In this document: positions 447 to 21,027 of the stretch, one piece after another
How positions within the stretch are numbered: position 1 is the stretch's first letter
How the letters are laid out: every line of letters begins with the position of its first letter
DNA from: Prolixibacteraceae bacterium
Lineage (GTDB): Bacteria; Bacteroidota; Bacteroidia; Bacteroidales; Prolixibacteraceae
Direction: 5' to 3'
Assembly: GCA_963692465.1 (NCBI GenBank)
Contig: OY829943.1
Location: forward strand, 417,935 to 481,934
Length of the DNA stretch: 64,000 nt
Notes under the pieces: generated by a model
Database searches by the model: none
Told to the model about the DNA's origin: nothing
What the model saw: the letters and a program-made list of their open reading frames with translations, nothing else
Program-made: the position numbers and the translations under genes

Positions 447-490
447 TGGATTTCAACAAAACTAAAAAAACGCACTTACACAATTACAAA

Positions 491-1537: not shown

Positions 1538-1617
1538 CGATTTCAATAAAGTACGTCTTTTTACAAAAGTCCATTATTTCCATAAAAAAGCATATAATTC
1601 AACAATAAATTTTTCCA

Positions 1618-2832
1618 ATGAAGACTCTCCTTCAAATAAACACCGTTGTTAACTCAGGATCTACAGGCCGAATAGTTGAAGGAATTGGTCAACTCGCTAT
1701 TCAAAATGGCTGGAATAGTTATATCGCTTATGGCAGAAATGAGAGGCCAAGCAAATCTAATCTACTAAAAATTGGATCAAATTTAGATGTCAAGATTCAT
1801 GGACTTCAAACAAGATTGTTTGATAAGCATGGACTTGCATCTAGCAATGCCACATATAAATTAATTAATCAAATTAAAGCAATCCATCCGGATATTGTCC
1901 ATTTGCACAACCTTCATGGATATTATATAAATATAGAAATTCTATTTAAATATTTAGCTAAGGCTGATATTCCCATTGTTTGGACATTACATGATTGTTG
2001 GCCCATAACTGGACATTGCGTACATTTTGACTATATTAATTGCATAAAATGGAAAGCCAAGTGTTGTCATTGTCCACAAACAGGTACATATCCTGCAAGC
2101 TTTTTAATAGATCGATCCAAAAGGAATTACTTATTAAAAAAAGGTCTTTTTACCTCTGTTAAAAAAATGGTAATTGTACCCGTTTCTCAATGGTTAGGCG
2201 ATATTATAAATCAATCGTTTTTATGTGACTATCCGGTTCAAGTCATTAACAATGGCATTGACATTCAAACATTTAAGTCTAACACCAATGAGATAATTCG
2301 AGAAAAATATAAAATTGAAGGAAAGTTTATAATCCTTGGAGTTGCAAGTATTTGGAGTTCTCGAAAAGGTTTGGCTGATTTCATTGAACTAAGCAAGTCC
2401 ATTGACATTAATAGTGTAATTGTTTTAGTTGGATTAAACCCAAGACAAATAAGAAATCTCCCCCATAATATCGTTGGAATAAACAAAACAGAGAATACAC
2501 AAGAACTTGCAGACTTGTATTCCTCTGCAGACGTTTTTTTAAACCCAACATGGGAAGATAATTTCCCGACTACAAATTTAGAAGCTCTCTCTTGCGGCAC
2601 ACCTGTCATAACATACCAAACAGGTGGAAGTATCGAGGCTATCTCCATGAAAACCGGAATCATAGTAGAAAAAGGAGATATTTCTGGTTTGCAGAAAGCA
2701 ATAAACAACATCCGAGATAATGGTAAAAAACATTATTCAATCGCATGTAGAGAACGTGCAAAGATGTTATATGATAAAAATGATCGTTTTTTAGATTACA
2801 TAAATCTATACAATAAATTATCCAATCTATAA
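1618..2832 (+). CDS. Glycosyltransferase, GT-B fold / family 4-like
   Basis: 404 aa. It has EDNFPTTNLEALSCGTPVITYQTGG (E-x7-E block) and SRKGL upstream, and sits in a glycan-locus context. Confidence 0.8.
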   Translation: MKTLLQINTVVNSGSTGRIVEGIGQLAIQNGWNSYIAYGRNERPSKSNLLKIGSNLDVKIHGLQTRLFDKHGLASSNATYKLINQIKAIHPDIVHLHNLHGYYINIEILFKYLAKADIPIVWTLHDCWPITGHCVHFDYINCIKWKAKCCHCPQTGTYPASFLIDRSKRNYLLKKGLFTSVKKMVIVPVSQWLGDIINQSFLCDYPVQVINNGIDIQTFKSNTNEIIREKYKIEGKFIILGVASIWSSRKGLADFIELSKSIDINSVIVLVGLNPRQIRNLPHNIVGINKTENTQELADLYSSADVFLNPTWEDNFPTTNLEALSCGTPVITYQTGGSIEAISMKTGIIVEKGDISGLQKAINNIRDNGKKHYSIACRERAKMLYDKNDRFLDYINLYNKLSNL

Positions 2833-2855
2833 TACACAACTTTATCAAATACATC

Positions 2856-3881
2856 ATGTTTAAAAATAAGGTACTTCTTATTACCGGAGGGACAGGTTCT
2901 TTCGGTAATGCTGTTTTGAATCGGTTTCTTGATTCTGAAATCAAAGAAATCAGAATTTTTTCCAGAGACGAAAAGAAACAAGATGACATGCGCCATCTGT
3001 TAAACAATTCCAAAGTAAAATTTTATATAGGAGACGTTCGTGATAGACACAGCGTCGATTATGCAATGAAAGGTGTTGATTATATATTCCATGCTGCAGC
3101 ACTTAAACAAGTTCCCTCTTGTGAATTCTTTCCAATTGAAGCAGTAAAGACAAATATACTTGGGGCACAAAATGTTCTTAGTTCTGCAATTGAACACAAA
3201 GTAAAACGCATGATTGTCCTTAGTACAGACAAAGCTGTATACCCTATTAATGCAATGGGGCTAACTAAAGCTTTAATGGAAAAGGCAATGATTGCAAAAG
3301 CAAGATCACTTGGGGATAATTCTGAAACTGTACTTTGTGGCACCCGCTACGGGAATGTAATGGCTTCAAGAGGTTCTGTTATCCCATTATTTGTTGATCA
3401 GATTAAGGAGAACAAAGATTTAACTGTAACTGACCCCAATATGACTCGCTTCATGATGACACTCGAAGATGCTGTTGATTTGGTCATTTATGCTTTTCAA
3501 CATGGTCAAAACGGAGATATATTTGTTCAAAAAGCTCCAGCATCAACAATCGGTGATCTTGCAAAATCTCTAATTGAACTATACCAATCCAAAAGCAAAA
3601 TCCGCGTTATTGGAACACGCCACGGAGAGAAACTTTATGAAACGTTGGTTAATCGAGAAGAAATGGCCAAAGCTGTTGATATGGGAGACTATTATCGAAT
3701 TCCTGCAGACAATCGTGATCTAAATTACGAAAGATATTTTAGCGAAGGAAAAGAACGAGTTTCAGAAATTGAGGATTACAATTCCCATAATACTCATCGT
3801 TTAGACATAGAAGGCACAAAAAAGCTTCTTCTGAAATTACCAATGATTAGAGAAGACATTAAAAATGAAAACGCCAAATAA
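2856..3881 (+). CDS. fnlA: UDP-N-acetylglucosamine 4,6-dehydratase/5-epimerase (FnlA/CapE/WbjB type)
   Basis: 341 aa. N-terminal Rossmann motif VLLITGGTGSFGNAV, extended-SDR CapD-like body, ...TRYGNVMASRGSVIPLF...MTRFMMTLEDAVDLV. It is followed by capF- and capG-like genes. Confidence 0.85.
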   Translation: MFKNKVLLITGGTGSFGNAVLNRFLDSEIKEIRIFSRDEKKQDDMRHLLNNSKVKFYIGDVRDRHSVDYAMKGVDYIFHAAALKQVPSCEFFPIEAVKTNILGAQNVLSSAIEHKVKRMIVLSTDKAVYPINAMGLTKALMEKAMIAKARSLGDNSETVLCGTRYGNVMASRGSVIPLFVDQIKENKDLTVTDPNMTRFMMTLEDAVDLVIYAFQHGQNGDIFVQKAPASTIGDLAKSLIELYQSKSKIRVIGTRHGEKLYETLVNREEMAKAVDMGDYYRIPADNRDLNYERYFSEGKERVSEIEDYNSHNTHRLDIEGTKKLLLKLPMIREDIKNENAK

Positions 3882-4314
3882 TATTCCTGAAATCATTAAT
3901 GGTGGAATATTCTCTGATAATAGGGGTGATATTGCATACGTAAATGGCTTTAACTTCGAAGGAGTAAAACGTTTCTATATAATAGAACATCCTGATAGTT
4001 CTGTTATCAGAGCATGGCAATATCACAGGATTGAGAAAAAATGGTTCTACGTGGTACAAGGTTCTTTTTGTATAGCGTGGGTTAAAGTTGATAATTGGGA
4101 AAATCCATCTCCTAATTTAGCTGTAGAATTCAAAATCTTAAATGCCTCTGAAAGTGAAATCATTTCCATTCCTGCTGGTTATGCAAATGGATTAAAAGCA
4201 TTAGAGCCTAATTCTAAAATCATAGTTTTTTCGGATATGGATGTTGAAACATCCATTAAGGAAAAAATTCGATTTGATAAAAATATGTGGTTTAACTGGG
4301 AAAATATTAAATAA
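3865..4314 (+). CDS. Small cupin-fold protein, WxcM/FdtA-like (putative nucleotide-sugar isomerase/epimerase)
   Basis: 149 aa. It overlaps the fnlA stop by 17 nt and abuts the next start. It has the pattern DNRGDI...VKRFYII...IRAWQYH...WFYVVQGSF...ISIPAGYANG, typical of the small sugar-cupin family. Confidence 0.6.
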   Translation: MKTPNNIPEIINGGIFSDNRGDIAYVNGFNFEGVKRFYIIEHPDSSVIRAWQYHRIEKKWFYVVQGSFCIAWVKVDNWENPSPNLAVEFKILNASESEIISIPAGYANGLKALEPNSKIIVFSDMDVETSIKEKIRFDKNMWFNWENIK

Positions 4315-5429
4315 TGAAAATAGGTATTACCGGACAAGCTGGCTTTGTTGGTACTCATTTATTCAATTATCTGAGTTTAGACAAAACTAATATCCAAATG
4401 ATTCCATTTAAGGATGAATACTTTTCGAACAAAGAAATACTTATCAATTGGGTCTTACAATGCGATGTCATTATTCATCTTGCAGCTTTAAATAGGCATT
4501 CTGATCCACAAGTTATTTATGAGACCAATATAACCCTTGTAAAACAATTAATTGAAGCATTAAAAAAAGCAGGAAACCATCCGCATATACTTTTTTCATC
4601 AAGCATTCAGGAAGAAAGAGAAAATTCGTATGGAAAATCAAAACAAGAAGGACGATTATTACTAAGCCAGTGGGCGCAACAGACTAATGCTTGTTTTACA
4701 GGAATGGTATTACCAAATGTTTTCGGTTCTTTTGGTCGCCCATATTATAATTCAGTAATCGCAACTTTTTCCCACCAATTGACACACAATGAAATACCTC
4801 GTCTTGAAACAGACAGCAATCTGCAATTAATATATATTGAAGAATTGGTTGCAAAGATTAAAGGACTAATAATCAATCATATTTCGTCAGAAGAGTATTT
4901 TGTTCCTCCTACTGCAGAAAAAAAGGTTTCAGAGATCTTAGCTTTATTAGAAAGGTATAAAGATGAATATTTTGAAAAAGGAATATTTCCAAAAATCAGG
5001 ACTCCTTTTGAACTAAACTTATTCAACACCTTCAGGTGTTATATTGATCAGCAAAAGATGTTCCCCTTCCCTCTTGAAAAACATGAGGATAACCGTGGCA
5101 GTTTTGTTGAAACAATAAAAACAGGAATCGGAGGACAGATTTCATTTTCAACAACAAAGCCGGGAATTACCAGAGGGAATCACTTCCATACCCGTAAGAT
5201 TGAGCGCTTTGCCGTCATTAAGGGAGAAGCTTTAATTCAACTCCGAAGAATAGGCACAGATGATATTATTGAATTTAAACTATCAGGAGACAAACCTTCA
5301 TTTGTAGACATGCCCATTTGGTATACTCATAACATTACAAACATAGGATCAGATGAATTATATACAATTTTCTGGATTAATGAATGGTTTAATTCAAGTG
5401 ACCAGGATACTTTCTTTGAAGAAGTTTAG
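4314..5429 (+). CDS. fnlB: Bifunctional SDR reductase + cupin (FnlB/CapF/WbjC type)
   Basis: 371 aa. An N-terminal Rossmann motif (IGITGQAGFVGTHL) plus a C-terminal cupin (HEDNRGSFVE...GITRGNHFHTRKIERF) gives the CapF two-domain architecture. Confidence 0.8.
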   Translation: MKIGITGQAGFVGTHLFNYLSLDKTNIQMIPFKDEYFSNKEILINWVLQCDVIIHLAALNRHSDPQVIYETNITLVKQLIEALKKAGNHPHILFSSSIQEERENSYGKSKQEGRLLLSQWAQQTNACFTGMVLPNVFGSFGRPYYNSVIATFSHQLTHNEIPRLETDSNLQLIYIEELVAKIKGLIINHISSEEYFVPPTAEKKVSEILALLERYKDEYFEKGIFPKIRTPFELNLFNTFRCYIDQQKMFPFPLEKHEDNRGSFVETIKTGIGGQISFSTTKPGITRGNHFHTRKIERFAVIKGEALIQLRRIGTDDIIEFKLSGDKPSFVDMPIWYTHNITNIGSDELYTIFWINEWFNSSDQDTFFEEV

Positions 5430-5439
5430 ATAAACAATT

Positions 5440-6570
5440 ATGAATAAATTAAAAGTATTAACAGTCGTTGGCACTCGCCCGGAGATTATTCGTTTAGCTT
5501 GTGTATTACAAAAATTAGATAATAGTCCGGCAATAGAACATGTATTAGTACATACTGGTCAAAATTATGACTATGAACTGAATGAGATTTTCTTTGACGA
5601 TTTAAATCTTCGAAAGCCTGATTATTTTCTAAATGCAGCAGGAAAGAATGCGACAGAAACGTCAGGACAAATATTAATTAATATTGATCCAGTATTAGAA
5701 AAAGAACAACCTGATGCATTCTTAGTATTAGGGGACACAAATTCTTGTTTATGTGCTATTGCTGCAAAAAAGAGGCATATTCCAATTTTTCACATGGAAG
5801 CAGGTAATCGTTGTTTTGATCAACGAGTACCAGAAGAAAGTAATCGAAAAATTGTAGATCATATTTCTGATATAAATATGACTTATAGCTCTATTGCACG
5901 AGAATATTTACTTCGCGAGGGTCTTTCTGCTGATCGGATTATTAAAACAGGCAGCCCAATGTATGAAGTACTGCACAAGTATCTACCAAAAATTCAGGCA
6001 GCTAATATTTTAAACACATTAAAACTTAAACGAAACAAATATTTTATTGTTTCTGCTCACAGAGAAGAGAATATTTCTTCTGAGAGGAACTTTCATAATT
6101 TAGTTAAAATATTAAATCAAGTAGCTGAGCAATATAACTATCCGGTAATCGTTTCTTGTCATCCCAGAACCCGCAAAATGATAGAAAAAGAAGAGATAAA
6201 ATTTCATAAGAATATAAAGCTTATGAAACCAATGTCGCTAAGCGATTATAACCATCTCCAAATGAATTCGACTTGTGTTCTTTCAGACAGTGGAACGATC
6301 AATGAAGAATCTTCTATTTTGAATTTCAGAGCCTTAAATATCAGAGAAGCACATGAACGCCCGGAGGCAATGGAAGAAGCAAGTGTCATGATGGTTGGTC
6401 TAAATCCTGATCGTGTAATGCAAGGACTAGTAGAAGTTCAAAGCCAAGACATAGAACAACGAAATTTCCGTCCGGTATATGATTATTCAATGCCCAATGT
6501 AAGTGATAAAGTTGTTCGAATTATTATTTCTTATACGGACTATATAAAAAGAGTTGTGTGGGGAAAATGA
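5440..6570 (+). CDS. fnlC: UDP-N-acetylglucosamine 2-epimerase family (FnlC/CapG/WbjD type, non-hydrolysing)
   Basis: 376 aa. Motifs VVGTRPEIIRL, LVLGDTNS, HMEAGNRCFDQRVPEE, SDSGTINEE. It is the third gene of the capE/F/G-like block. Confidence 0.85.
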   Translation: MNKLKVLTVVGTRPEIIRLACVLQKLDNSPAIEHVLVHTGQNYDYELNEIFFDDLNLRKPDYFLNAAGKNATETSGQILINIDPVLEKEQPDAFLVLGDTNSCLCAIAAKKRHIPIFHMEAGNRCFDQRVPEESNRKIVDHISDINMTYSSIAREYLLREGLSADRIIKTGSPMYEVLHKYLPKIQAANILNTLKLKRNKYFIVSAHREENISSERNFHNLVKILNQVAEQYNYPVIVSCHPRTRKMIEKEEIKFHKNIKLMKPMSLSDYNHLQMNSTCVLSDSGTINEESSILNFRALNIREAHERPEAMEEASVMMVGLNPDRVMQGLVEVQSQDIEQRNFRPVYDYSMPNVSDKVVRIIISYTDYIKRVVWGK

Positions 6571-7775
6571 AAATTCTAATAATCTCACAGTATTTTTACC
6601 CCGAAGAGTTTAAATGTAATGATATTGCTTTTGAACTTTCAAGACGAGGTTACGATGTAACTGTTGTTACCGGGATTCCTAATTACCCTCAAGGATCATT
6701 TTTTAAAGGATATGGACTATTAAAAAAGAAAAAGGAAGTAGTTAACAGTGTTAAAATAAGAAGAATTCCATTAGTTCCTCGAGGTAAAGGAAAAGGAATA
6801 AGATTAGCACTTAATTACTTTAGTTGGTGTGTATTGGCTTCAATATGGATTTTATTCCATGCATTAAAATACAAATATGATAGAATACTTGTACACCAAA
6901 CATCTCCGATAATACAAGGATTTCCGGCTATTGTTGCTAAAAAAATTCAGCATATTCCCATTTATTTCTGGACATTAGATTTGTGGCCAGAAAGTCTTAC
7001 TAGCGCAGGAGGAATTCACAATAAATTTATTCTCAATTTCTTTACAAAAATTGTCTGTTTTTTATATCGACAATCAGATAAAATATTAATTAGTTCGAAA
7101 GGATTTGAAAAATCAATATGCTTAAAAGGAGATTTTGCAGATAAATTAGTTTACTTTCCCAATTGGGCAGAAGATATATTTAATACTCAAATCTCTTACG
7201 CAATTCCAAAGTTACCTAAAGGATTTAAAGTAATGTTCGCAGGAAATATAGGAGAAGCACAGGATTTTGATAATATCATGCAAGCCGCAAGAGAACTTAG
7301 AAACGAAAAAGATATTAAAATCATTTTAATCGGAGATGGGAGAAAACGTGCATGGGTAGAGAACTTCATCAAAAAAGAAGATTTACAAGAAACTGTATAT
7401 GTCATGGGTAGATTCCCGTTGCAATCAATGCCTATTTTCTTTAAACAAGCAGATGTAATGTTGGTTTCATTAAAGGATGAAATTATTTTTAATCTCACCG
7501 TTCCCGCTAAACTTCAGGCATACATGGCTTCAGAAAAGCCAATTATTGCAATGCTCAATGGCGAAAGCACCGAATTAATTAAAGAAGCAAAATGTGGTGT
7601 AACTGCACCTGCAGGAAATTATAAAAAACTTGCTAGCAGAATATTACAATTAAAACATACAAGCAAAGAAGAATTAGATAAGATGGGCAAGAATGGCAAA
7701 GAATTTTGCAACCAACATTTCAATAAATCAAAATGTATAGATCATTTATGTAAATTATTTGATGAATATAAATAA
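6567..7775 (+). CDS. Glycosyltransferase family 4, WbuB-like (putative L-FucNAc-type transferase)
   Basis: The ATG at 6567 overlaps the fnlC stop as ATGA. It begins MKILIISQYFYPE and is a 400-aa GT-B protein. It sits directly after the fnl-like genes, as wbuB does in O-antigen loci. Confidence 0.75.
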   Translation: MKILIISQYFYPEEFKCNDIAFELSRRGYDVTVVTGIPNYPQGSFFKGYGLLKKKKEVVNSVKIRRIPLVPRGKGKGIRLALNYFSWCVLASIWILFHALKYKYDRILVHQTSPIIQGFPAIVAKKIQHIPIYFWTLDLWPESLTSAGGIHNKFILNFFTKIVCFLYRQSDKILISSKGFEKSICLKGDFADKLVYFPNWAEDIFNTQISYAIPKLPKGFKVMFAGNIGEAQDFDNIMQAARELRNEKDIKIILIGDGRKRAWVENFIKKEDLQETVYVMGRFPLQSMPIFFKQADVMLVSLKDEIIFNLTVPAKLQAYMASEKPIIAMLNGESTELIKEAKCGVTAPAGNYKKLASRILQLKHTSKEELDKMGKNGKEFCNQHFNKSKCIDHLCKLFDEYK

Positions 7776-8881
7776 GGAATCTTTATTATCCTCTTCTTTA
7801 ATCGATTACAAATAAAATTAAATTTTGAAATAACAGAAGGTAAAGGATCTCTTTTAATATAATAAAAAGAATTCACAACAAATTCACTCAAACTATCATC
7901 TTTTCTTTGGAAAAAGCTTCTAAAATACGCAGTCACACTCATATAATATTTATAATCATATTGGGGAATTTTAAAAAATCTATTTTGAGAAGATAATAAG
8001 TTAAAGTACGGAAAATTTACCCCAACAGATAACGATCCTAAAAGAGAAGCCCAATAACGAGGATTAATTTCAATCACCTTTATTTGTTTTTCCTTTTCAT
8101 CAAATAATAAATCAATGTGAGCAATTCCCGTCCAATTTAATTTATACATTAGCCCTTTGACTACATCTAAAAGATCTTGATTAAAAAGAAATTGGACACT
8201 AGAAGCTGGCAAGAATCTTGACTTTTTTATCACCCCACGCTGAATTGTATATGCTAATATTTCTCCGTGTCGACACAACACGCTACAATCAATATCATAT
8301 CCATAAATATATTGCTGAATTACATACCGCTTAGCAGAATTACTATAGGAATCTATTTCCTGTAGTAATTCTGCTTTCGTATTATAAAGTCGAATTCCCT
8401 CACCTCCGCTACCCTGAGTTGGTTTAATCAAAACAGGGAAAAAGGTATCTTCAAGGTTAGTTGCTTTTTCTCTCTCTAATAAAACAGTTTTAGGATGAGG
8501 AATTTTATTTTTCCAATTAAATTCAGCGAATAATGCTTTATCAGAAGCAATTTGGAAACTATCCTCATCTGGAATTGAAATAATTAATTCTAATTTTTCA
8601 AGGGTGTTTTTATTCTGTATAATAAATTGGATTCCCTTTTCCGTTACAGGTATTAGAACCGCACTTCTATTTTTAGATGCGATTTCCTTAATGCAAGCTA
8701 AACAGTCAGTTTCATTTTTCTTATAGAAAAAGAACTTGCAATAACGAGAAAACCGAATTGCCGGATATTTCAGAGAAGATAAAATATATACGTCCAGGTC
8801 TACCCTTTTTGATAGACATGTAATAACATTCAATGCAAAATTATTTTCTCCATCAGGAATAATGACAATTTTCTTTTTCAT
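7742..8881 (-). CDS. ATP-grasp domain enzyme (COG3919-like), copy 1
   Basis: ORF 7742..8896; the Met at 8881 (MKKKIVIIPDG) is preferred. It has the ATP-grasp blocks FPVLIKPTQGSGGEGI, DIDCSVLCRHGEILAYTIQ and IKVIEINPRYWASLLGS. It is a paralog of 9988..11151. Confidence 0.75.
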   Translation of the reverse strand: MKKKIVIIPDGENNFALNVITCLSKRVDLDVYILSSLKYPAIRFSRYCKFFFYKKNETDCLACIKEIASKNRSAVLIPVTEKGIQFIIQNKNTLEKLELIISIPDEDSFQIASDKALFAEFNWKNKIPHPKTVLLEREKATNLEDTFFPVLIKPTQGSGGEGIRLYNTKAELLQEIDSYSNSAKRYVIQQYIYGYDIDCSVLCRHGEILAYTIQRGVIKKSRFLPASSVQFLFNQDLLDVVKGLMYKLNWTGIAHIDLLFDEKEKQIKVIEINPRYWASLLGSLSVGVNFPYFNLLSSQNRFFKIPQYDYKYYMSVTAYFRSFFQRKDDSLSEFVVNSFYYIKRDPLPSVISKFNFICNRLKKRIIKIPYLYSSNNLHK

Positions 8882-9142
8882 TAGTCGTACCCGCAATGTT
8901 TATTCATGAAAATTCAGAGAGGGACAAAATTATGAATATATCCGAATAACAACAACTCTGTAGCAAAGAATTTATAGATAAGAAGCTCCTTTTACTAATT
9001 AAATCTATCGGTTCGTGGGATTAATCTGATACTGAGTAAACTTATATGGCATTAAATTTCATAAGAGAATTTAACACGCAGGATTGTAAAATTGGAATGA
9101 TCTTTGCCATGTAAATATTAGACAAAAAAGATATATATTAAG

Positions 9143-9946
9143 ATGAAATTAGACAAAAAAATTATTCGCACATTATTCTTTTTGCTTTTACTTTTTTTAA
9201 TTCAAGTTAAGGGATCTTCTGCTGTCTCCGATACCATAAGAGTACTCTTTATTGGGAACAGTTATATATACGTTAATGATTTACCCTCGTTATTAAAGGA
9301 AGTTGCATCATCCGATGGAAAAGTTATTATCTCCGAACAAGACACTCCGGGTGGGAGTACTCTTGAAGGACACTGGAAATCAGAAATTCCTCAAAAGCTA
9401 ATAAAAGAAGGAGGTTGGAACTACATGATTTTGCAAGAACATAGTCAACGTCCCTCAATGCCAATTGAAAGCGTGAATCAATTAGTTTTCCCATTTGTTC
9501 ACAATCTGGACAGTCTATTTAAAGCATTTAATCCTACGGGAAAAACAATATTTTACATGACATGGGGTAGGAAAAATGGAGATTCCTCAAGATGTAAAGA
9601 ATTGCCACTAGTGTGTACTTATCAAGGCATGGACGACCTCACTCGCGAACGTTATCTCATGATGTCCGAACAAAACAAAGCATTAATTTCGCCAGTGGGT
9701 GTTGTTTGGCGACATTTAAGAGAAACTAATCCCGAAATTGAACTCTACATGAGTGATGAAAGCCATCCTTCAATAAATGGTTCATATGCAGGAGCATTGT
9801 GCTTTTATACGGTTATAACGCAAAAAGACCCCACTCTTATTTCATTCAACTCGACAATTGACCCTACTATGGCTAATATCATTAAAATGGCAGTTAAAAA
9901 AGTTGTTTATGAGCATCTAGATCAATGGAATATTGGACGATATTAG
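9143..9946 (+). CDS. Secreted SGNH/GDSL-like hydrolase (DUF4886-like), copy 1
   Basis: It has a signal peptide (LFFLLLLFLIQVKGSSA), block I VLFIGNSY (Ser nucleophile context), block V SDESHPS (D-x-x-H) and MTWGRKNGDS. It is a paralog of 11371..12414. Confidence 0.65.
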   Translation: MKLDKKIIRTLFFLLLLFLIQVKGSSAVSDTIRVLFIGNSYIYVNDLPSLLKEVASSDGKVIISEQDTPGGSTLEGHWKSEIPQKLIKEGGWNYMILQEHSQRPSMPIESVNQLVFPFVHNLDSLFKAFNPTGKTIFYMTWGRKNGDSSRCKELPLVCTYQGMDDLTRERYLMMSEQNKALISPVGVVWRHLRETNPEIELYMSDESHPSINGSYAGALCFYTVITQKDPTLISFNSTIDPTMANIIKMAVKKVVYEHLDQWNIGRY

Positions 9947-9987
9947 GTATATGAGTAAAATTCTCTAAAGTTAAAATCATCATAATT

Positions 9988-11151
9988 TTAACTTTTCTGC
10001 TTAACCTTTTGTCCAGGTTCCATTTGCAAGTCAGCAATGTCCTTTTTTAAAATACTCTTCAAACAACGATAGACTGTTTTTGATTTTGAAAAAACAAAAG
10101 GCAATGGGTCTATTATAATGTAGAATAATGATGTTTTAACTTTTCCTTCTATGTTATTTCTCTCTTTTATCTTTTTAAAGCTACATTTTAAAAAGGACAA
10201 ACTGTCAACGTAACAATTAAATTTATACTTTGGCTCAGTAAAAGGAACATTGACAATAGATAAATACAATAACTGAGGAAAATTTACTCCAACAGACAGT
10301 GAACCTAACAACGAGGCCCAAAAACGAGGATTAATTTCAATAACTTTTATCTCTCCATTTTCTTCATCATAACGAAGATCAATATGAGCGACCCCATTCC
10401 AATTTAGCTTATGCATTAATTCACTTACCACCTTTAAAGTTTCCTGATCAAAGAGAAACTTTATAGTAGAAGACGGCATAAATTCGGATTTTTTCGTTAT
10501 TCCTTGTTGAATAGTATAAGCTAAAATTTTCCCGTCCTTACAAAGAACACTACAGTCAATATCAAACCCTTTAATATATTGCTGTGCGATATATCTTTTG
10601 TTAATTATCCCCTCTGACGCAATAAACTCAAGCAAATTCATTTTAGTATTAAAAAACATTATTCCTTGTCCATTGCTACCCTGAGTTGGTTTAATAAGTA
10701 CTGGAAAAGAAATATTAGAATTAGCAATATTCTTATCCACTGGGATAGTATACGGATGAGGTAAATTATTTTGTTTACTGAATTTGGCGAATAATAATTT
10801 ATCAGAGGCAATATAAAAAGAGTCAATAATAGGAAGAGACGTAAATATCTTTAATTGGTCTAACTTTTCTTTATGTTTATAAACGAACAGGGTTCCTTTT
10901 TCCTGCAATGGGAAAAGGATGATTCTTCCATCTCCTCTTTCCCTAGAAATCGCTATAATGTGATTCAATAAAAATCCTTCATTTTCGACAAAGCAGAAAT
11001 TTTTACAATATCTAGAAAATCGAACATTTGGAAATTTGACATTTGAAAAAAGATATATTTCTATTCCCTCTGTTTTTGATAAACCCGTAAGTACGCTTAA
11101 AGCAAACCCACTTTCACCATCTGGAATAATAATTATATCGTTACTTTTCAT
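9988..11151 (-). CDS. ATP-grasp domain enzyme (COG3919-like), copy 2
   Basis: 387 aa. It has the same conserved blocks as copy 1 (FPVLIKPTQGSNGQGI, DIDCSVLCKDGKILAYTIQ, IKVIEINPRFWASLLGSLSVGVNFP). Confidence 0.75.
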   Translation of the reverse strand: MKSNDIIIIPDGESGFALSVLTGLSKTEGIEIYLFSNVKFPNVRFSRYCKNFCFVENEGFLLNHIIAISRERGDGRIILFPLQEKGTLFVYKHKEKLDQLKIFTSLPIIDSFYIASDKLLFAKFSKQNNLPHPYTIPVDKNIANSNISFPVLIKPTQGSNGQGIMFFNTKMNLLEFIASEGIINKRYIAQQYIKGFDIDCSVLCKDGKILAYTIQQGITKKSEFMPSSTIKFLFDQETLKVVSELMHKLNWNGVAHIDLRYDEENGEIKVIEINPRFWASLLGSLSVGVNFPQLLYLSIVNVPFTEPKYKFNCYVDSLSFLKCSFKKIKERNNIEGKVKTSLFYIIIDPLPFVFSKSKTVYRCLKSILKKDIADLQMEPGQKVKQKS

Positions 11152-11370
11152 TTCTAATAAATTTAATCTGTTTTTACCTTTAAATATTCAATTTCAAAGG
11201 GAAGGTAGGTTAAAAAGGGGGGAGCTATATCTGAAATTCAAGCAACTGTATGAATCTATTTAATAAACAAAAGGAATCCCTCACTTAGTGTATAAAGCTT
11301 TTTCTTAAAAAAAACAATTTTCCTTATTTTCGATTGTTGAAATTTGACTGTACGAATGTAATTAAAGAAG

Positions 11371-12414
11371 ATGAAAAATTTATTCCTTGTATTTGGTGCA
11401 CTATTCTGTTTCTGCTGTTGCACAGACTATCTATCAGGACAGGAGTTCAACAACCCAAGAGTTTCCCAAGACACAATAAGGGTATTGTTTATTGGAAATA
11501 GCTATACGTATACGAATGATCTTCCTCTATTATTAAAAAAAATTGCATCATCTGATGGAAAAACTATTATAACAGAACAAGATACCCCAGGAGGATGCAC
11601 CTTAGAAGGTCACTGGAATTCAGGAGTACCACAAAAGTTGATAAAAAAAGGCAATTGGGATTATATGGTTTTACAAGAACATAGTCAACTTCCTTCTGAA
11701 CCATTGAATGGATTTAATAACAAAGTATTACCTTTTGTAGAAAAGCTTAACAGTCTTTTTAAAAAACAAAATCAAAAAGGGAAGACTATTTTATATATGA
11801 CATGGGGAAGAAAAAACGGAGATTCTGATCGCTGCGGCAAATGCCCAGACGTCTGTTCATATGAAGGAATGGACAGCCTAACTCGTGCTCGTTATTTAAT
11901 ATTAGGAGATAAAATCGAATCATATATTTCACCTGTTGGCGCCATATGGAGATACATTCGAAACAAACATCCAGAAATCGAACTTTATAGCAGTGACTGT
12001 AGTCATCCTTCAATAAATGGATCTTTTGCCGGTGCATTAAGTTTTTATACTATAATTACACAAAAGAATCCTTCTAAAATAGTCTATAACACTTCAATTT
12101 CACCTGCTATTACATCAATGATAAAAGAGGCAGTTGAGAAAATTGCATACGACAGCTTGTATTACTGGAATGTTGGAATAACTGCCTTTTCTTATAAAGA
12201 AAGAGCAAACAATCTGGTCTCCTTTCGTAATCTTTCACGTAATTACGATTCGCTACTTTGGAATTTTGGTGATGGACAAAATTCAACAGAAAAAAATCCA
12301 TCGCACCAGTATCCAAAGAAAGAAGTATACAGAGTCACTCTCTACATAACGAAGAATAACAAAACCAGCTGTTTCTCATCAGATATTTCTACTATTCTTC
12401 GTCGATTAAGATAA
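11371..12414 (+). CDS. Secreted SGNH/GDSL-like hydrolase with C-terminal PKD-like domain, copy 2
   Basis: It has a signal peptide, VLFIGNSY, SDCSHPS and MTWGRKNGDS, as in copy 1. It also has about 80 extra C-terminal residues, WNFGDGQNSTEKNPSHQYPKKEVYRVTLYI (PKD-type motif). Confidence 0.65.
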   Translation: MKNLFLVFGALFCFCCCTDYLSGQEFNNPRVSQDTIRVLFIGNSYTYTNDLPLLLKKIASSDGKTIITEQDTPGGCTLEGHWNSGVPQKLIKKGNWDYMVLQEHSQLPSEPLNGFNNKVLPFVEKLNSLFKKQNQKGKTILYMTWGRKNGDSDRCGKCPDVCSYEGMDSLTRARYLILGDKIESYISPVGAIWRYIRNKHPEIELYSSDCSHPSINGSFAGALSFYTIITQKNPSKIVYNTSISPAITSMIKEAVEKIAYDSLYYWNVGITAFSYKERANNLVSFRNLSRNYDSLLWNFGDGQNSTEKNPSHQYPKKEVYRVTLYITKNNKTSCFSSDISTILRRLR

Positions 12415-12419: not shown

Positions 12420-13205
12420 ATGCCAATTGAGATGGAAAATAAGCTGACGAAACGGGATATAATATCAAGAGAATTTCAGATAAAGAAATTCAATGTAAAA
12501 CACATGGTCCCGACGGTCACTCTGACAATAAACGTTGAAGCTGATAATTTGATTCAACGTAAAAAGGATATCAACGGTAATGCTAATTCACCGCACCTGA
12601 CAGTTACTCATATCATTCTGAAAGCGGTTGCTGAGGTCATTGTTAACTATCCGTTGTTATACAGCTTCTTTGATAGGCACAAGATCGTCCCCAATGCCGA
12701 GTTAATTTTGAATATTCCCGTTGCCATAGAAAATCATGTCGAATATGTCTCCATTCATAATGCCGAATCAAAATCATTGGAGGATATTGCAAGTGAATGC
12801 TCGGCTGAGATAGAAAAAATCAATAGGCACGAAGGGGAATTCATGAAATTGTTAGAAAAGATGGATAGGATGTCGGTATTACAAAAAATAGGATTTTACA
12901 TCTTTGAGCTAAAAGGTGCAGTTCCCTTCTTACGAAAATACTACGGTAATTTCCCTGTTTCAAACATCGGTTCTTTTAAGGTCAACAGTGGAACTCTGGC
13001 ATTGTCACAACCGATGGTTTCATCTCTTTGTATTGGCCGCATTACGTCTGTCCTACAAAAGGAGAATGGGAACTTGATTGACAAACTTATCTTGCCATTG
13101 AGTGTTTCATTTGATCATCGGGCCCTTGACGGGGCTTATGCCGGGGCTTTTCTGAATGAATTAAAAGAACATTTGGAAAAACCGGTATTGTCTGAAATTG
13201 AATGA
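12420..13205 (+). CDS. Stand-alone 2-oxoacid dehydrogenase E2-type (CAT-fold) acyltransferase catalytic domain
   Basis: 261 aa. It has the catalytic motif SFDHRALDGAYAGAFLNELKEHLEKP (DHR-x-x-DG) at the C-terminus. There is no lipoyl or subunit-binding domain in the ORF. It starts 5 nt after the stop of 11371..12414. Confidence 0.75.
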   Translation: MPIEMENKLTKRDIISREFQIKKFNVKHMVPTVTLTINVEADNLIQRKKDINGNANSPHLTVTHIILKAVAEVIVNYPLLYSFFDRHKIVPNAELILNIPVAIENHVEYVSIHNAESKSLEDIASECSAEIEKINRHEGEFMKLLEKMDRMSVLQKIGFYIFELKGAVPFLRKYYGNFPVSNIGSFKVNSGTLALSQPMVSSLCIGRITSVLQKENGNLIDKLILPLSVSFDHRALDGAYAGAFLNELKEHLEKPVLSEIE

Positions 13206-13301: not shown

Positions 13302-13334
13302 TGTCTGATAATTATTGACATGGATAAAATTTCA
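13302..13334 (+). repeat. 33-nt core repeat, copy 1 (TGTCTGATAATTATTGACATGGATAAAATTTCA)
   Basis: An identical 33-mer occurs at 16284..16316, and a copy with 2 substitutions at 18069..18101. All three are in the same orientation. Confidence 0.85.
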
Positions 13335-13341
13335 AGTTGCC

Positions 13342-13662
13342 ATGAAAAACAACAAAGTAATTGACAGATTAAATCAAATCGTTTCTTCTGAACCATCCAA
13401 ATGGCTTGATGATGAAAAAAGAAGAAAAGAGAATCGCGATTGGTTGAATAATTCAACTAAAATCGCCATACGAATACTACGGGCTATAAGAGCTCAAAAA
13501 GAGACGAGAAATATGTCACAAAAAATGCTCGCTGACATAATGGGGGTTAGTCAACAATATATTAGCAAAATAGTAAAAGGGCAAGAGAACCTTTCTCTGG
13601 AAACAATCTGCAAGCTTGAAAAAGCTCTTGGAATTGTTCTTGTTGAGATTCCGAAACTTTAG
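13342..13662 (+). CDS. XRE-family helix-turn-helix transcriptional regulator
   Basis: ORF 13315..13662; the ATG at 13342 (MKNNKVIDRL) is preferred. It has the HTH_3 motif MSQKMLADIMGVSQQYISKIVKGQENLSLETICKLEKALG. Confidence 0.8.
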   Translation: MKNNKVIDRLNQIVSSEPSKWLDDEKRRKENRDWLNNSTKIAIRILRAIRAQKETRNMSQKMLADIMGVSQQYISKIVKGQENLSLETICKLEKALGIVLVEIPKL

Positions 13663-13670
13663 AAGAAACC

Positions 13671-13713
13671 TGTCTCAATGGAATTATCTGTATCGCATGC
13701 TGAAATTGAGACA
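13671..13713 (+). promoter_or_regulatory. 9-bp inverted repeat between the XRE gene and the ATPase gene (operator or weak terminator)
   Basis: TGTCTCAAT (13671-13679) and ATTGAGACA (13705-13713) form a perfect inverted repeat with a 25-nt spacer. Confidence 0.35.
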
Positions 13714-13773
13714 ATGGAATCAGTTACAATTATTTTTGTAATTTTGTCTAAAAGCAAACAATAATATTACACC

Positions 13774-14826
13774 ATGATTAATCGGGTAAATATCAAAAAC
13801 TTTCAGATATTCGATAATTTTCAGATATCAAATTTCACTCCTGTAAATGTTATCATTGGCCGCAATGATTCAGGAAAAACCAGTTTGCTAAAAATACTTT
13901 ATACAGTTACGAAGTCGGTTGAAGAATTTGGTCTAAAGCAACAACATTCTCCCGAATCTTTTAAAAAAATTATCAGTAAAAAAATCCAAAATACGTTTAA
14001 TACACATAAAACCGGGATTGGAAGTCTTGTAAAACGCGGGACAGAAAAGTTATTTTTTGACCTCACTTTTGATAATAACCAGAGCATTCATTTTTCATTT
14101 ACTGACCGAGCAACGGAGAACATTGTTGACTGTTCTGCATCAATCAATAACGTTGATAATTGTTTCAATTCCCTTTTCATCCCGGCAAAGGAGGTTCTTT
14201 CTATTTTCAAAGCAATAGAAACTTCTCGTGGCAGTTTATTTGTCCCTGATTTTGATGATACTTACCTTGACCTTGTTAATGCTCTAAAAATTCCAACGCA
14301 ACAAGGGCGGGTCGAAACAAATCTTCTAAATGTGAATAATATCCTTTCCCATCTTTTTGAAGGAGAGATTCAACAGGTTAACGAGGGATTCGATATCGAT
14401 TTTGTATTTAAAAAGGGAAAGTACGACTTCGCGATGCCGGTAACCGCTGAAGGAATTAAAAAAATTGGTGTTATTACAACACTTATCAGAAATCACCGAT
14501 TAAATAAAAATACAATCCTTTTCATGGATGAACCGGATACTAATTTACATCCGGATGCAATACGTCAGCTATGCGAAATTATTTATGATATCAGTAAAGC
14601 TGGAATTCAGATTTTCCTTTCTTCCCACAATTATTTCCTTATAAAGCAACTCTCTATCATTGCCCGCCGTGAAAAACAATCAATGAATTGTCTCTCTCTG
14701 TGTAATAATGAAGAGCAAAAAACTCAATATTTAATCGCTGATCTTAAAGACGGTATGCCGTCTAATTCAATTATTGACGAAGCATTGAAAATGTTAGATG
14801 ATGAAACTGACATTGATTTAAAATAA
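13774..14826 (+). CDS. ABC/SMC-type P-loop ATPase (AAA_15/AAA_21-like)
   Basis: 350 aa. Walker A VIIGRNDSGKTSLL, signature-like TAEGIKK, Walker B ILFMDEPDTNLHP, H-loop-like FLSSHN. No fused nuclease domain is recognisable. Confidence 0.75.
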   Translation: MINRVNIKNFQIFDNFQISNFTPVNVIIGRNDSGKTSLLKILYTVTKSVEEFGLKQQHSPESFKKIISKKIQNTFNTHKTGIGSLVKRGTEKLFFDLTFDNNQSIHFSFTDRATENIVDCSASINNVDNCFNSLFIPAKEVLSIFKAIETSRGSLFVPDFDDTYLDLVNALKIPTQQGRVETNLLNVNNILSHLFEGEIQQVNEGFDIDFVFKKGKYDFAMPVTAEGIKKIGVITTLIRNHRLNKNTILFMDEPDTNLHPDAIRQLCEIIYDISKAGIQIFLSSHNYFLIKQLSIIARREKQSMNCLSLCNNEEQKTQYLIADLKDGMPSNSIIDEALKMLDDETDIDLK

Positions 14827-14833
14827 TTATCTC

Positions 14834-15199
14834 ATGTCTATTAGCGAAAGTGGTATAACTCTTAATTTTCCGGATAACAATTATTTTCGATTTCAAAATT
14901 GCAAGGCATATCAAAAACTTTCTAATATTCATTTCAATTTTAAAGATAAAAAACCAACAAAAAACTGATCTAAACTTCATTAAAGATCAATATAAAGCGA
15001 TGTTCAGACCTTATGAAAAGCTTTTCAGCATTAAAAGTACAGTAATAAGTCATGATAAGGCTATTGAAAGATTTCAATGGGTAGAATAATATCTACATCC
15101 GATGGAATGGTCTGGATAAAGGGGCATGTAATCGGTAATTACAAATGGTTCTTCATCACTTCAGGCGATGTTTTAGCCGAAAGTTCCAAAAATAAATAG
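14834..15199 (+). pseudogene. Possible frameshifted partner gene of the ATPase (three consecutive reading segments)
   Basis: Segment 1 is 14834-14968 (MSISESGITLNFPDNNYFRFQNCKAYQKL...). Segment 2 continues in another frame from the A-rich run at about 14948-14965 to the stop at 15087-15089 (...DLNFIKDQYKAMFRPYEKLFSIKSTVISHDKAIERFQWVE). Segment 3 is in the third frame, to the stop at 15197-15199 (...DGMVWIKGHVIGNYKWFFITSGDVLAESS). Confidence 0.35.
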
Positions 15200-15298
15200 T
15201 TGGGTATTCGGAAATTAAATTTTCAACAATAACTGTAAAAATTAAACATTGATTTAATTCCATTGTTATTTTTGTATAGAAAAAAAATAAACTGAGCT

Positions 15299-15775
15299 AT
15301 GCCTACATCTTTTACTTCAACAGATTCTCAAGTTTGTATGTGGTTTAACAAATTGATTTCGTCTCTCGTAGGTGATCAAATTGAAATAGAATCAGGGATT
15401 GCTAATAAAGAAAAAAAAGATTTTTACGGGGCGGCTATGAATAGCGATTATTATAGTTTAAGTAGTAATGTTCGCTTACAATCAACACAATTTTTTATTT
15501 CAAGCATGCTAAAAGATTACATTGAAGAAATAAAAAAAAGGAATGCTCAACCGCTTTCTCTTTCATTGAAATTATCTAATTCGAAGATTCTTGCCTGGGC
15601 TATTACAAAAGATGATGACGAAGAAACAGAGAATAAGTTGTATTTGGCTGCTGCTGCAATAAATGCAAAATATTATAAAGAGGGATTTTATATTAGTACA
15701 ACGATTGTTGAAGAGTCGGATAATTACAATGCTCCCGCTCAATATCAACTTCTATTTAGCAATGGCCAACTTTAA
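15299..15775 (+). CDS. Hypothetical protein (158 aa), first gene of an overlapping pair
   Basis: A clean ORF with no motif I recognise. Its stop overlaps the next start by 14 nt. Confidence 0.6.
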   Translation: MPTSFTSTDSQVCMWFNKLISSLVGDQIEIESGIANKEKKDFYGAAMNSDYYSLSSNVRLQSTQFFISSMLKDYIEEIKKRNAQPLSLSLKLSNSKILAWAITKDDDEETENKLYLAAAAINAKYYKEGFYISTTIVEESDNYNAPAQYQLLFSNGQL

Positions 15776-16250
15776 TGAACATTTAAATCAAGCACAAAGC
15801 AATCTTTCTTTTTTACGGGAGATTAATAGTTTATCTAACCATTATTGGGATTGGCAGGTTACTACATGTTTTTATGTTGCGGTTCACCTCATTAATGCTT
15901 ATATCGCGGATAAATCTAACATGCATTATCGTAGTCACGAGGATGTAGCCCAGGCAATAAATCCGTATAATCAATTGTCTCCATTAAAAGTGACTGATGA
16001 AGTATACGTATCATATTGTAAACTTCAAAATTTATCTCGTCGGGCCCGTTATTTAATAAATGACAACATGAAAAATCGAGAAACAAATGGGCACTTTACT
16101 TCTGATAAACACTTTATTAAAGCATTAAAAAGTTTAGATAGAATATTAGATTTCTTCATCAAAAAATACCCTTCAGAATCTTTTGACACATTAGATTTAC
16201 ACTGCATGGAAGGAAAGAAAACATCTTTTGCCTATTTCCAGATTTTATAA
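15762..16250 (+). CDS. Hypothetical alpha-helical protein (162 aa), second gene of the overlapping pair
   Basis: ORF 15663..16250. The ATG at 15762 (MANFNEHLNQAQSNL) is preferred because upstream of it the frame runs inside the previous CDS. It contains one R-x4-H spacing (RETNGH). An internally deleted ghost copy lies at 17938..18020. Confidence 0.6.
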   Translation: MANFNEHLNQAQSNLSFLREINSLSNHYWDWQVTTCFYVAVHLINAYIADKSNMHYRSHEDVAQAINPYNQLSPLKVTDEVYVSYCKLQNLSRRARYLINDNMKNRETNGHFTSDKHFIKALKSLDRILDFFIKKYPSESFDTLDLHCMEGKKTSFAYFQIL

Positions 16251-16363
16251 AATGTAAGTGTTAATCTTTTTGTTGTTTAGAAATGTCTGATAATTATTGA
16301 CATGGATAAAATTTCAGAAAAAAATGTGAACTCCGATATTGTTGGCACTGAAAATGGCACTGT
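16235..16363 (+). repeat. ~130-nt direct repeat, copy 1 (3' end of CDS 15762..16250 plus downstream sequence; contains core copy 2 at 16284-16316)
   Basis: It aligns by eye, with a few substitutions and 1-nt indels, to 18020..18163. Confidence 0.85.
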
Positions 16364-16603
16364 TGCGTTCTTCGTTAACGGAGGAGTAATGATATCTTGA
16401 TATTAAATTTGTTGAGAAGGGAACAAGAAACGGAAAGAAATTTTTTATTGAAAGTACCAATGTAAGCAGGTTCTTCAGACAATATCACATGAACAAATAC
16501 AGCAAAAAAATATCAATAACGCTGCATGCAAACAGCATTTTTAAACTAATATTGCTGAACACAAACAGCAAATAAGTATATTTGCCACATTAATACAACA
16601 AAT

Positions 16604-17803: not shown

Positions 17804-17823
17804 TATCCTATCAAGCGTTTTAT

Positions 17824-17879
17824 TTAAAAGAACGTTTGGAAAAACCGGCATTATCTGGAATTGAATAAGTAAGTTTTCC
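17824..17879 (+). pseudogene. Ghost of the 3' end of an E2-type acyltransferase gene
   Basis: It still reads LKERLEKPALSGIE-stop, versus LKEHLEKPVLSEIE-stop at the end of CDS 12420..13205 (nt 13161-13220). The flanking GTAAGT..GTTTTCC is also shared. Confidence 0.75.
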
Positions 17880-17937
17880 ATAAGCATTCAGAGACGTACT
17901 CCCCATTCACAGATAGATCGAATAATTAATGTAGCCA

Positions 17938-18020
17938 CATTATTGGGATTGGCAGGTTACTACATGTTTTTATGTTGCAATTCACCTCATTAATGCTTAT
18001 ATCGCGGATAAATCTAACAT
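17938..18020 (+). pseudogene. Ghost (5'-truncated, internally deleted) of a second copy of CDS 15762..16250
   Basis: It matches 15839..15922 with 2 substitutions. It then joins directly to the sequence homologous to 16235 onward, so about 0.3 kb of the gene is missing. Confidence 0.8.
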
Positions 18021-19842: not shown

Positions 19843-21027
19843 ATGCCTCTAATTCTAAATATTACAATATGCTTTGGATTGGCTGCAATGCTTGTCTTTT
19901 TCTGTATTCCTACAATTATTGGAGTAGCAAGGAAAAAAAAGCTCTATGATGTTCCAAACGCAAGAAAAGTAACGACTCAGGTGATTCCTACATTAGGAGG
20001 GGTTGCTATATTCCTGGGGTTCGTTATTGCAGTCACGGTCTCCCTATACAATTATACATTCCTTGAATTTCGTTATATACTAACGGCCTTAACCATCATG
20101 CTCTTTGTCGGTTTAAAAGATGACCTGATGGATATCTCGGCATCGAGTAAATTTATCGGTGAATTTGTTGCTGCTACGATGGTGTGCGTTCTGGGTAACA
20201 TTCGCTTCACTGATTTACATGGTTTATTAGGAATTCATGCATTAAATCCGTTCTTCAGTATTGTATTATCGCTGCTTTTTATTGCGTTTATTGCCAATGC
20301 AATTAACCTGATTGACGGAATTGACGGACTTGCCTCAGGAATTGTTATAGTGGCTTGTGCAACACTCGGCACTTGGTTCTATCTCTCCGGAAATAATACT
20401 TATGCTCTCATGAGCTTTGCGTTAGTGGGTGCATTGTGCTCATTTTTTCTCTACAATGTCTTCGGGAAAAGCAACAAGATCTTTATGGGCGATACGGGGT
20501 CTTTAATTCTGGGGCTCATTCTGTCGGTACTCATTATTCGTTTTAACGAATTAAATATAGTGGGTGGAAAGCCTTACTCGGTTCCTGCTTCTCTTGCCAT
20601 TTCCCTGGGTATTGTTATTCTTCCGGTCATTGATACACTTCGGGTTATGATTCTAAGAATGATCCACGGAAAGTCTCCATTTAAAGCGGATCGAAATCAT
20701 ATTCATCACATGCTCCTTGATCTTAATTTTACGCATCTGCAGGCTACGTTAATATTAGTCGGGGCAAATCTGCTCTTTACAATTGCCTCTTTTGCTCTTC
20801 GGGACCTTGGAACAAATATACTTCTGTTCATTAATGTTGCCGCCGGATTTTCATTGGCCTTTATGCCTTCTTTGATTTTGAAACGGCGGGCCGAAAAATC
20901 AATCGGTAACGAAATGAGACTAACCGATGAAGAAATGAAAGAAATTACGAAACTAATAAATGACTCTTCCTCATTGGTTATCACAAAGAAACATCATCAA
21001 CCGACCAGTATAGGTGGCACCAACTAA
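19843..21027 (+). CDS. wecA: Polyisoprenyl-phosphate N-acetylhexosamine-1-phosphate transferase (WecA/WbpL, MraY-like GT4 family)
   Basis: 394 aa, polytopic. Motifs VGLKDDL, NAINLIDGIDGLASG, MGDTGSLILG, DRNHIHH. Confidence 0.85.
   Translation: MPLILNITICFGLAAMLVFFCIPTIIGVARKKKLYDVPNARKVTTQVIPTLGGVAIFLGFVIAVTVSLYNYTFLEFRYILTALTIMLFVGLKDDLMDISASSKFIGEFVAATMVCVLGNIRFTDLHGLLGIHALNPFFSIVLSLLFIAFIANAINLIDGIDGLASGIVIVACATLGTWFYLSGNNTYALMSFALVGALCSFFLYNVFGKSNKIFMGDTGSLILGLILSVLIIRFNELNIVGGKPYSVPASLAISLGIVILPVIDTLRVMILRMIHGKSPFKADRNHIHHMLLDLNFTHLQATLILVGANLLFTIASFALRDLGTNILLFINVAAGFSLAFMPSLILKRRAEKSIGNEMRLTDEEMKEITKLINDSSSLVITKKHHQPTSIGGTN

Follow-up and report, generated by a model that had tools for sequence, protein, structure and literature searches.

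Two copies of a two-gene unit, each made of a minus-strand gene for an ATP-grasp ligase and a plus-strand gene for an exported SGNH protein of the DUF4886 type, lie side by side at 7742-12414 of a 64,000-nt stretch of DNA (the window) from a Prolixibacteraceae bacterium (positions 417,935-481,934 of OY829943.1, assembly GCA_963692465.1; window numbering is used throughout). The tandem duplication is real, old and specific to the lineage, and the two enzymes that it doubled, both uncharacterised, belong to known superfamilies. That their genes are neighbours is probably a lineage-specific juxtaposition, doubled by copying of the segment; it would bring together enzymes that most likely act independently of each other, not the parts of a conserved two-enzyme machine. 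It is roughly an even bet that either of them acts on the glycan of the locus in which it is found.

A first-pass annotation of the window, made from the sequence alone, had described two tandem units, each with an ATP-grasp gene on the minus strand, a gap and a gene for an SGNH protein with a signal peptide on the plus strand. The open reading frames (ORFs) lie where it had placed them, and the divergent gaps measure 261 and 219 nt:

7742..8881, minus strand: ATP-grasp paralog 1, 379 aa from the ATG at 8881 (the database start); the ORF reaches a TTG at 8896
8882..9142: divergent intergenic region 1, 261 nt, 30% GC
9143..9946, plus strand: DUF4886-type SGNH paralog 1, 267 aa, with a Sec-type signal peptide, without a PKD domain and without a type IX secretion system (T9SS) sorting domain
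9947..9987: convergent spacer, AT-rich, 41 nt
9988..11151, minus strand: ATP-grasp paralog 2, 387 aa
11152..11370: divergent intergenic region 2, 219 nt, 27% GC
11371..12414, plus strand: DUF4886-type SGNH paralog 2, 347 aa, with a lipobox-like N-terminus, SGNH plus PKD, without a T9SS sorting domain
12241..12372, plus strand: PKD domain of SGNH paralog 2 (residues 291-334; PKD_4, 38.9 bits)

The last glycan gene before the units, which encodes a WbuB-like glycosyltransferase of family 4 (GT4), is convergent with ATP-grasp 1, and their 3' ends overlap by 34 nt. A 14-nt inverted repeat (9967-9980 / 9982-9995) extends from the convergent spacer into the end of ATP-grasp 2.

The two ATP-grasp proteins are 50% identical over 353 aa (E 6e-121) and the two SGNH proteins 64% identical over 236 aa (E 2e-120); all of the motif blocks quoted in the first-pass annotation occur within these alignments. 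Homologous DNA positions lie 2267 nt apart in the ATP-grasp genes and 2240 nt apart in the SGNH genes, offsets that mark the arrangement as a single tandem segmental duplication of a ~2.25-kb two-gene unit. Both genes were thus copied in one event, and the second pair adds no independent evidence of linkage; one segmental duplication is enough to produce a ‘pair seen twice’. Nei-Gojobori estimates of nonsynonymous (dN) and synonymous (dS) divergence and of their ratio (omega) are dN 0.43, dS 1.9 and omega 0.22 for the ATP-grasp pair, and dN 0.30, dS 2.4 and omega 0.13 for the SGNH pair. Synonymous divergence is saturated and the duplication is therefore old, while the omega values indicate purifying selection on four genes that are all intact and have kept their catalytic residues, in agreement with the earlier description of an old duplication that has been maintained. 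The intergenic regions, previously judged not alignable, show no similarity beyond that of shuffled sequence (local score 21, shuffle mean 20.5; 123 of 300 shuffles reach 21). The substrate specificities of the paralogs have probably diverged.

Pairing of the two families was sought from both sides. A profile-guided scan yielded 80 metagenomic loci with ATP-grasp homologs of 29-40% identity (about 451 kb of flanks), and none of the 80 contains a DUF4886 homolog by tblastn with both window SGNH copies as queries. At least 1 kb of upstream sequence is available at 46 of these loci, 16 of which have a divergent upstream neighbour. The 25 Pfam families listed for 101 immediate neighbours of the ATP-grasp genes include no SGNH family; Acetyltransf_6 (10) and FemAB (7), which are overlapping FemAB-like families, come first, followed by NMO (5). 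An exopolysaccharide marker is present at only about 8 of the 80 loci. An Algoriphagus homolog adjoins a gene for a pyridoxal phosphate (PLP) decarboxylase, while the closest homolog outside this genome that has neighbours (41% identity) is followed by CHASE2 and peptidase genes, with no DUF4886 gene in the 4.2 kb downstream on a contig that has only 159 nt upstream. A recurrent 375-aa gene upstream of some of the homologs was considered as a hidden ATP-grasp paralog and rejected (hhalign probability 1.7%).

A subset of the ATP-grasp relatives is found in compact, tightly packed exopolysaccharide-type operons, best illustrated by two metagenomic loci. In L040 (1222-11371) the gene order is two polysaccharide deacetylases, a GT4, a UDP-sugar dehydrogenase, a FemAB-like GNAT, the ATP-grasp, an AMP-binding-like gene and an AsnB-like gene; L014 (2316-8104) has the deacetylases, the GT4, the FemAB-like gene and the ATP-grasp in common with it. 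Operons of this type are a better place to work out the function of the ATP-grasp subfamily.

On the SGNH side, seven contexts of DUF4886 homologs were covered, with co-occurrence scored as adjacency over up to 7-10 kb, and an ATP-grasp gene was found in none of the seven. One context belongs to a third paralog in the same genome but outside the window (P0122; L004 8001-8819), which encodes 272 aa, is 68% identical to copy 1, lacks PKD and sorting domains and sits between the housekeeping genes ribH and pdxH; its ortholog in another sample is 89% identical. An ortholog of copy 2 (L087; 79.5% protein identity, 82% nucleotide identity, dS 0.9) is preceded by a 233-aa gene of unknown function and followed by gmd and then an fcl-like gene, with no ATP-grasp gene in the 1.55 kb upstream on a contig of only 5 kb. 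The nucleotide homology of this contig to the window does not extend past the borders of the gene. A Chryseobacterium SGNH homolog and one homolog without a sorting domain are in unrelated contexts with no ATP-grasp neighbour, and a distant relative that also lacks the sorting domain (L089) adjoins AT3 acyltransferase and epimerase genes, the only relative with an AT3 neighbour.

The first-pass annotation had proposed that ligase and SGNH protein are functionally coupled, and had named a failure of the two families to co-occur outside this genome as an outcome that would speak against it. Within the sample of 80 ATP-grasp loci and seven DUF4886 contexts, the families were not found as neighbours, which is the outcome so named, and the proposed coupling is not supported. 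Adjacency of an ATP-grasp and a DUF4886 gene was seen only in this genome, which is also represented in the Logan assemblies ERR12015700 and ERR12015701.

The family assignments themselves are secure. The two minus-strand proteins score 53.1 and 52.4 bits against ATP-grasp_3 (PF02655; gathering cutoff 23.2 bits) and the two plus-strand proteins 33.2 and 43.6 bits against DUF4886 (PF16227; gathering cutoff 26.7 bits). Structure modelling with AlphaFold2, a check that the first-pass annotation had suggested, supports both folds. The model of ATP-grasp 1 (predicted local distance difference test [pLDDT] 92.4, predicted template modelling score [pTM] 0.90) has a three-domain ATP-grasp fold, and Foldseek matches it with a probability of 1.00 to biotin carboxylase, 2pn1, PurK, L-amino-acid ligases and PylC, all about equally well (template modelling score [TM] about 0.6, 13-18% identity). 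The model of SGNH copy 1 (pLDDT 91.1) is best matched by 4i8i (TM 0.72/0.75), then by 4s1p, and then by SGNH esterases and PatB.

Across 35 members of the ATP-grasp family, K153 (in ‘LIKP’) and D257 are invariant, as are N273 and R275 of ‘IEINPR’, and E271 of the latter motif is nearly so; these ATP/Mg-binding residues are present in both window paralogs. The proteins are long, with three domains and a C-terminal helical extension. A search with the family profile reached the ATP-grasp domain of carbamoyl-phosphate synthase (CPSase) and 2pn1 at about 65 bits. The best NCBIfam match is to PRK12767.1-4, at 74.7 bits against an equivalog cutoff of 390, and scores for enzymes of primary metabolism are likewise far under their equivalog cutoffs (PurK, 35.1 vs. 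326; CPSase large subunit, 47.2 vs. 1027; AccC, 27.3 vs. 626.5; Ddl, 30.1 vs. 243). The proteins thus fall outside the primary-metabolism clades, membership of which the first-pass annotation had named as another outcome that would speak against its proposal, and by equivalog scoring no characterised subfamily in NCBIfam claims them. The stand-alone, CPSase-like ATP-grasp proteins of the PRK12767 / 2pn1 type and COG3919-type carboligases are the best sequence and profile matches; 2pn1 resembles the window proteins in its three-domain layout and stand-alone size (Foldseek TM 0.64/0.78), but identity is about 15% and 2pn1 is itself without an assigned function.

The ATP-grasp subfamily comprises about 440 clusters at the 50% identity level (E ≤ 1e-30), and its named members are mostly from Bacteroidota; one homolog is labelled a D-aspartate ligase by JGI. 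Apart from the paralog in the window, the closest near-full-length relative in 5.8 billion clusters is about 42% identical. A single-protein query against genome contigs proved ineffective and matched only Methanobrevibacter (25% identity). One metagenomic protein (P0322, 846 aa) holds two tandem copies of this subfamily in one polypeptide, a fusion in which paired copies of the ligase recur at least once.

The SGNH catalytic blocks (G-N-S, P-G-G, K-N-G-D and Asp-x-x-His) are all present in both window copies. Among 34 sequences, G38, N39, D205 and H208 are invariant, and S40, G70 and N145 are conserved in at least 90%. A cysteine pair, C151 and C158, is also invariant among 34 homologs and is consistent with an extracytoplasmic location of the proteins. 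DUF4886 is among five SGNH families for which no activity is known (PMC9487903). Its structure 4i8i is BACUNI_01406 of Bacteroides uniformis, which is the best structural match and yet only 19% identical to the window protein. Unlike this reference, the window proteins are part of a far larger subfamily, the usual form of which is SGNH + PKD + T9SS sorting domain: a homolog search gave 1740 matches, and most of the best 120 are about 420 aa long and have this architecture. The search documents a large uncharacterised family of Bacteroidota SGNH proteins with PKD and T9SS sorting domains, in which one clade is without the sorting domain and tends toward nucleotide-sugar genes. That clade, recovered with 100% bootstrap support, contains both window copies, P0122 and two orthologs from other samples. 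Pfam and NCBIfam scans found no sorting domain (Por_Secre_tail, PF18962) in either window copy, and PKD is kept in copy 2 but gone from copy 1 and P0122.

The first-pass annotation held that the second SGNH copy had gained a PKD-like tail. Since most of the homologs (best 120 of 1740) carry both PKD and the sorting domain and the window clade lacks the latter, loss is the simpler reading; the opposite direction is likelier, and PKD is most likely ancestral, with the window clade having shed parts of the SGNH + PKD + T9SS form. The branching order of the three SGNH paralogs (54% vs. 34% bootstrap) neither supports nor contradicts copies 1 and 2 as sisters. Export signals also differ between the copies. 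Copy 1 has an ordinary Sec signal peptide, whereas copy 2 and its ortholog have Cys-rich N-termini (FCFCCCTDY, 11371-11450; LCLCSCTDY, L087 1554-1630) that are lipobox-like and followed by an acidic residue. Lipoprotein anchoring may therefore have replaced T9SS export in these two proteins, to judge from the N-terminal residues.

The ATP-grasp proteins would use ATP to form an acyl-phosphate and from it an amide between a carboxylate and an amine, for example that of an amino acid, on a cytoplasmic glycan precursor; the site of the amide could be the carboxylate of a uronic acid or a de-N-acetylated amine. A role as a glycan amide ligase is suggested because relatives sit in exopolysaccharide operons (L040 and L014). 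A precedent is the C-terminal domain of Cj1438 (Cj1438C) of Campylobacter jejuni HS:2, an ATP-dependent capsule amidoligase that forms an amide at C6 of glucuronic acid (PMC11800379). Like the window proteins, Cj1438C is an ATP-grasp enzyme in a surface-polysaccharide locus, with amide chemistry of the kind proposed here. It is TupA-like and unrelated, however, whereas the window proteins are stand-alone and ATP-grasp_3, and the TupA-like family is absent from their Pfam matches (E ≤ 0.01). No uronic-acid-forming gene or UDP-sugar dehydrogenase was seen in the accessible part of the glycan locus. For the SGNH proteins, the proposed reaction is removal or transfer of O-acyl groups on an extracytoplasmic glycan; a role as O-acyl esterase or transferase in that compartment fits their intact catalytic set, their export signals, the proximity of their clade to nucleotide-sugar genes and the one AT3 neighbour.

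The first-pass annotation had placed the units inside a glycan locus. As to position this holds, with glycan genes on both sides, but the 7.7-19.4 kb region also holds non-glycan cargo. The features around the units are:

431-7775, plus strand: GT4, GT4, FnlA/B/C-like and WbuB-like genes (Pfam/NCBIfam)
6558..7775, plus strand: WbuB/WcaI-like GT4, the last glycan gene before the units (Pfam, NCBIfam)
12420..13205, plus strand: stand-alone 2-oxoacid dehydrogenase E2 catalytic-domain acyltransferase with the chloramphenicol acetyltransferase (CAT) fold, 5 nt after SGNH copy 2
13315-13662: helix-turn-helix ‘control protein’-like gene
13774-14826: HEC-02A-type AAA_21 ATPase (1e-101)
15299-16250: two unannotated ORFs
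16604-17803: PDC-S01-type AAA_14/DUF4143 ATPase (6e-27)
18163-19446: PDC-S01-type AAA_14/DUF4143 ATPase (8.6e-184)
19843..21027, plus strand: WecA-like initiating transferase (Glycos_transf_4), which bounds the glycan region on the far side; pyrG and yidC come next

GC content rises from 0.31-0.35 in the first 18 kb or so to 0.38-0.42 thereafter. The units lie in a low-GC, mosaic accessory island between glycosyltransferase genes of the N-acetyl-L-fucosamine (L-FucNAc) type and the WecA-like gene, and the ATP-grasp genes are oriented opposite to the glycan operon. The stretch from 13315 to 19446 is a candidate run of defence genes, whereas ATP-grasp 1, SGNH copy 1 and the E2 catalytic-domain protein gave no matches to PADLOC defence models. 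In a region that gathers defence genes and other cargo as well, the fact that two genes are neighbours within a glycan locus says little about a shared function. The E2 catalytic-domain product (261 aa) has the DHRxxDG motif and lacks lipoyl and subunit-binding domains. Its family is rare (about 22 close homologs, 39-53% identity), and its genes are usually followed by a LysR regulator or found in non-glycan contexts, which suggests a CAT-like small-molecule acyltransferase. The gene was considered as a third part of a module with the units and set aside: its homologs have LysR or unrelated neighbours, and the copy-2 SGNH ortholog is followed instead by gmd.

Among the readings of the pairing, we rank independent, juxtaposed enzymes above cargo of the island, and cargo above a coupled system. 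The coupled system, as originally proposed, would be a two-step decoration/editing module for an L-FucNAc-type glycan, with ligation in the cytoplasm, transfer or trimming outside, and two specificities. The position of the units between glycan genes is what such a module would lead one to expect, the divergent layout permits a shared control region, and both pairs have survived from an old duplication and are under purifying selection; in addition, some ATP-grasp relatives are within exopolysaccharide operons, and the copy-2 ortholog and the sorting-domain-less relative adjoin nucleotide-sugar or AT3 genes. The Dlt system (DltA ligase, DltC, DltB and DltD) offers a precedent for a cytoplasmic ligase that works with an extracytoplasmic SGNH-fold protein, DltD being listed as an SGNH-family D-alanyl transferase (PMC9487903). 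In both Dlt and the AT3-SGNH O-acetyltransferases (OafA/OatA type), activation or acyl supply takes place in the cytoplasm, and an SGNH-fold protein works on a surface glycopolymer outside. However, these systems require a membrane acyl-translocase (MBOAT or AT3), and Dlt also a carrier, to bring the activated group over the membrane, and no MBOAT, AT3 or carrier-protein gene was found among the ORFs annotated in 431-21027; the activating enzyme of Dlt is, moreover, an adenylate-forming ligase, in contrast to the ATP-grasp of the window. To our knowledge, an amide made by an ATP-grasp enzyme is not a typical SGNH substrate. The two intergenic regions have no common conserved element, the second pair arose by copying and does not count as a separate instance, and the families do not co-occur in the 80 ATP-grasp loci or the seven DUF4886 contexts. 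A coupled module of this kind is unlikely, although if the pairing were functional it would amount to a new route of surface-glycan decoration in Bacteroidota and give DUF4886 a first function.

That neither enzyme acts on the glycan of the locus is easier to accept, if still clearly less probable than independent, juxtaposed enzymes. Both would then be cargo of the island, the ATP-grasp forming an amide in a small molecule or peptide and the SGNH protein de-esterifying exogenous substrates, presumably in the manner of its relatives that are secreted by the T9SS. The low-GC island does hold HEC-02A, PDC-S01 and E2 catalytic-domain genes without a glycan role, most contexts of ATP-grasp homologs are non-glycan (few have the exopolysaccharide marker, and neighbours include NMO and PLP decarboxylase), and most DUF4886 relatives are T9SS cargo in unrelated contexts; within the locus, the opposite orientation of the ATP-grasp genes interrupts a co-directional glycan operon, and a uronic-acid-forming gene was not seen in its accessible part. 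Against this, glycan genes flank the units on both sides, a subset of ATP-grasp relatives is clearly within exopolysaccharide operons, and gmd and fcl directly follow the copy-2 ortholog. ATP-grasp ligases are also known from Bacteroidota as modifiers of ribosomally synthesized and post-translationally modified peptides (RiPPs), and the window proteins might accordingly be macrocyclases of graspetides (omega-ester/amide RiPPs) acting on precursor peptides encoded in the divergent gaps, which at 219-261 nt could in principle accommodate a short gene. The ORFs of at least 20 aa in the gaps are, however, mutually unrelated and of low complexity, the gaps share no similarity, and the search for a precursor gene found no small ORF shared between them; the long three-domain architecture with its C-terminal helical extension and the best matches, to CPSase-like and Ddl-like profiles, point away from such enzymes as well. 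The RiPP reading is essentially excluded.

Several observations weigh against independent enzymes, the reading that we favour. Both units are intact, and their arrangement has not changed since the duplication, whose age is such that dS is saturated, in a region that otherwise rearranges freely, and retention of both pairs is also what selection on the pair would produce. No ATP-grasp relative besides the paralog exceeds 46% identity in 5.8 billion clusters, so that sampling has essentially missed any lineage in which the pair might be conserved; for DUF4886 the sample is only seven contexts, and the contig of the copy-2 ortholog is only 5 kb long. Co-occurrence was scored by adjacency, over 7-10 kb at most, and not genome-wide. 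The ligase and the SGNH protein could thus be a recent, lineage-restricted couple, in which, for example, one decorates the glycan with aminoacyl or acyl groups and the other trims or relocates them, later duplicated to give two specificities. Such a couple would be invisible elsewhere because the lineage is almost unsampled; we nevertheless regard it as very unlikely, and independent enzymes in a lineage-specific juxtaposition remain the better account.

An Rfam scan of 1-24000 found no family at gathering score, and TAnnTTTG (the Bacteroidota -7 box) occurs once in the gaps, upstream of ATP-grasp 1, but is uninformative at a window-wide frequency of ~1 per kb. The window starts in the C-terminal part of an IS66 transposase (24-383). 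Immediately before it come a full IS66 (TnpB and a 517-aa transposase) and an ISL3 transposase, and a multi-span, Wzy-like membrane protein of 461 aa is encoded between IS66 and ISL3 (L095 1-5611); the glycan locus is broken by these mobile elements. A 149-aa ORF (3865-4314, plus strand) between the FnlA-like and FnlB-like genes overlaps both and has no Pfam match; it is called as a gene in database assemblies. On the other side of the units, a GHL10 glycosyl-hydrolase-like gene is followed by a gene for an HGSNAT-type transmembrane acetyltransferase (28832-31608, plus strand), which is the only membrane acyltransferase-like gene among the ORFs annotated in 431-31608 and is 16 kb from the units. 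A 263-aa ORF at the edge of the glycan region (21053-21844, minus strand) joins a DUF772 transposase-domain segment to a LytTR DNA-binding domain and may be a chimeric or decayed gene.

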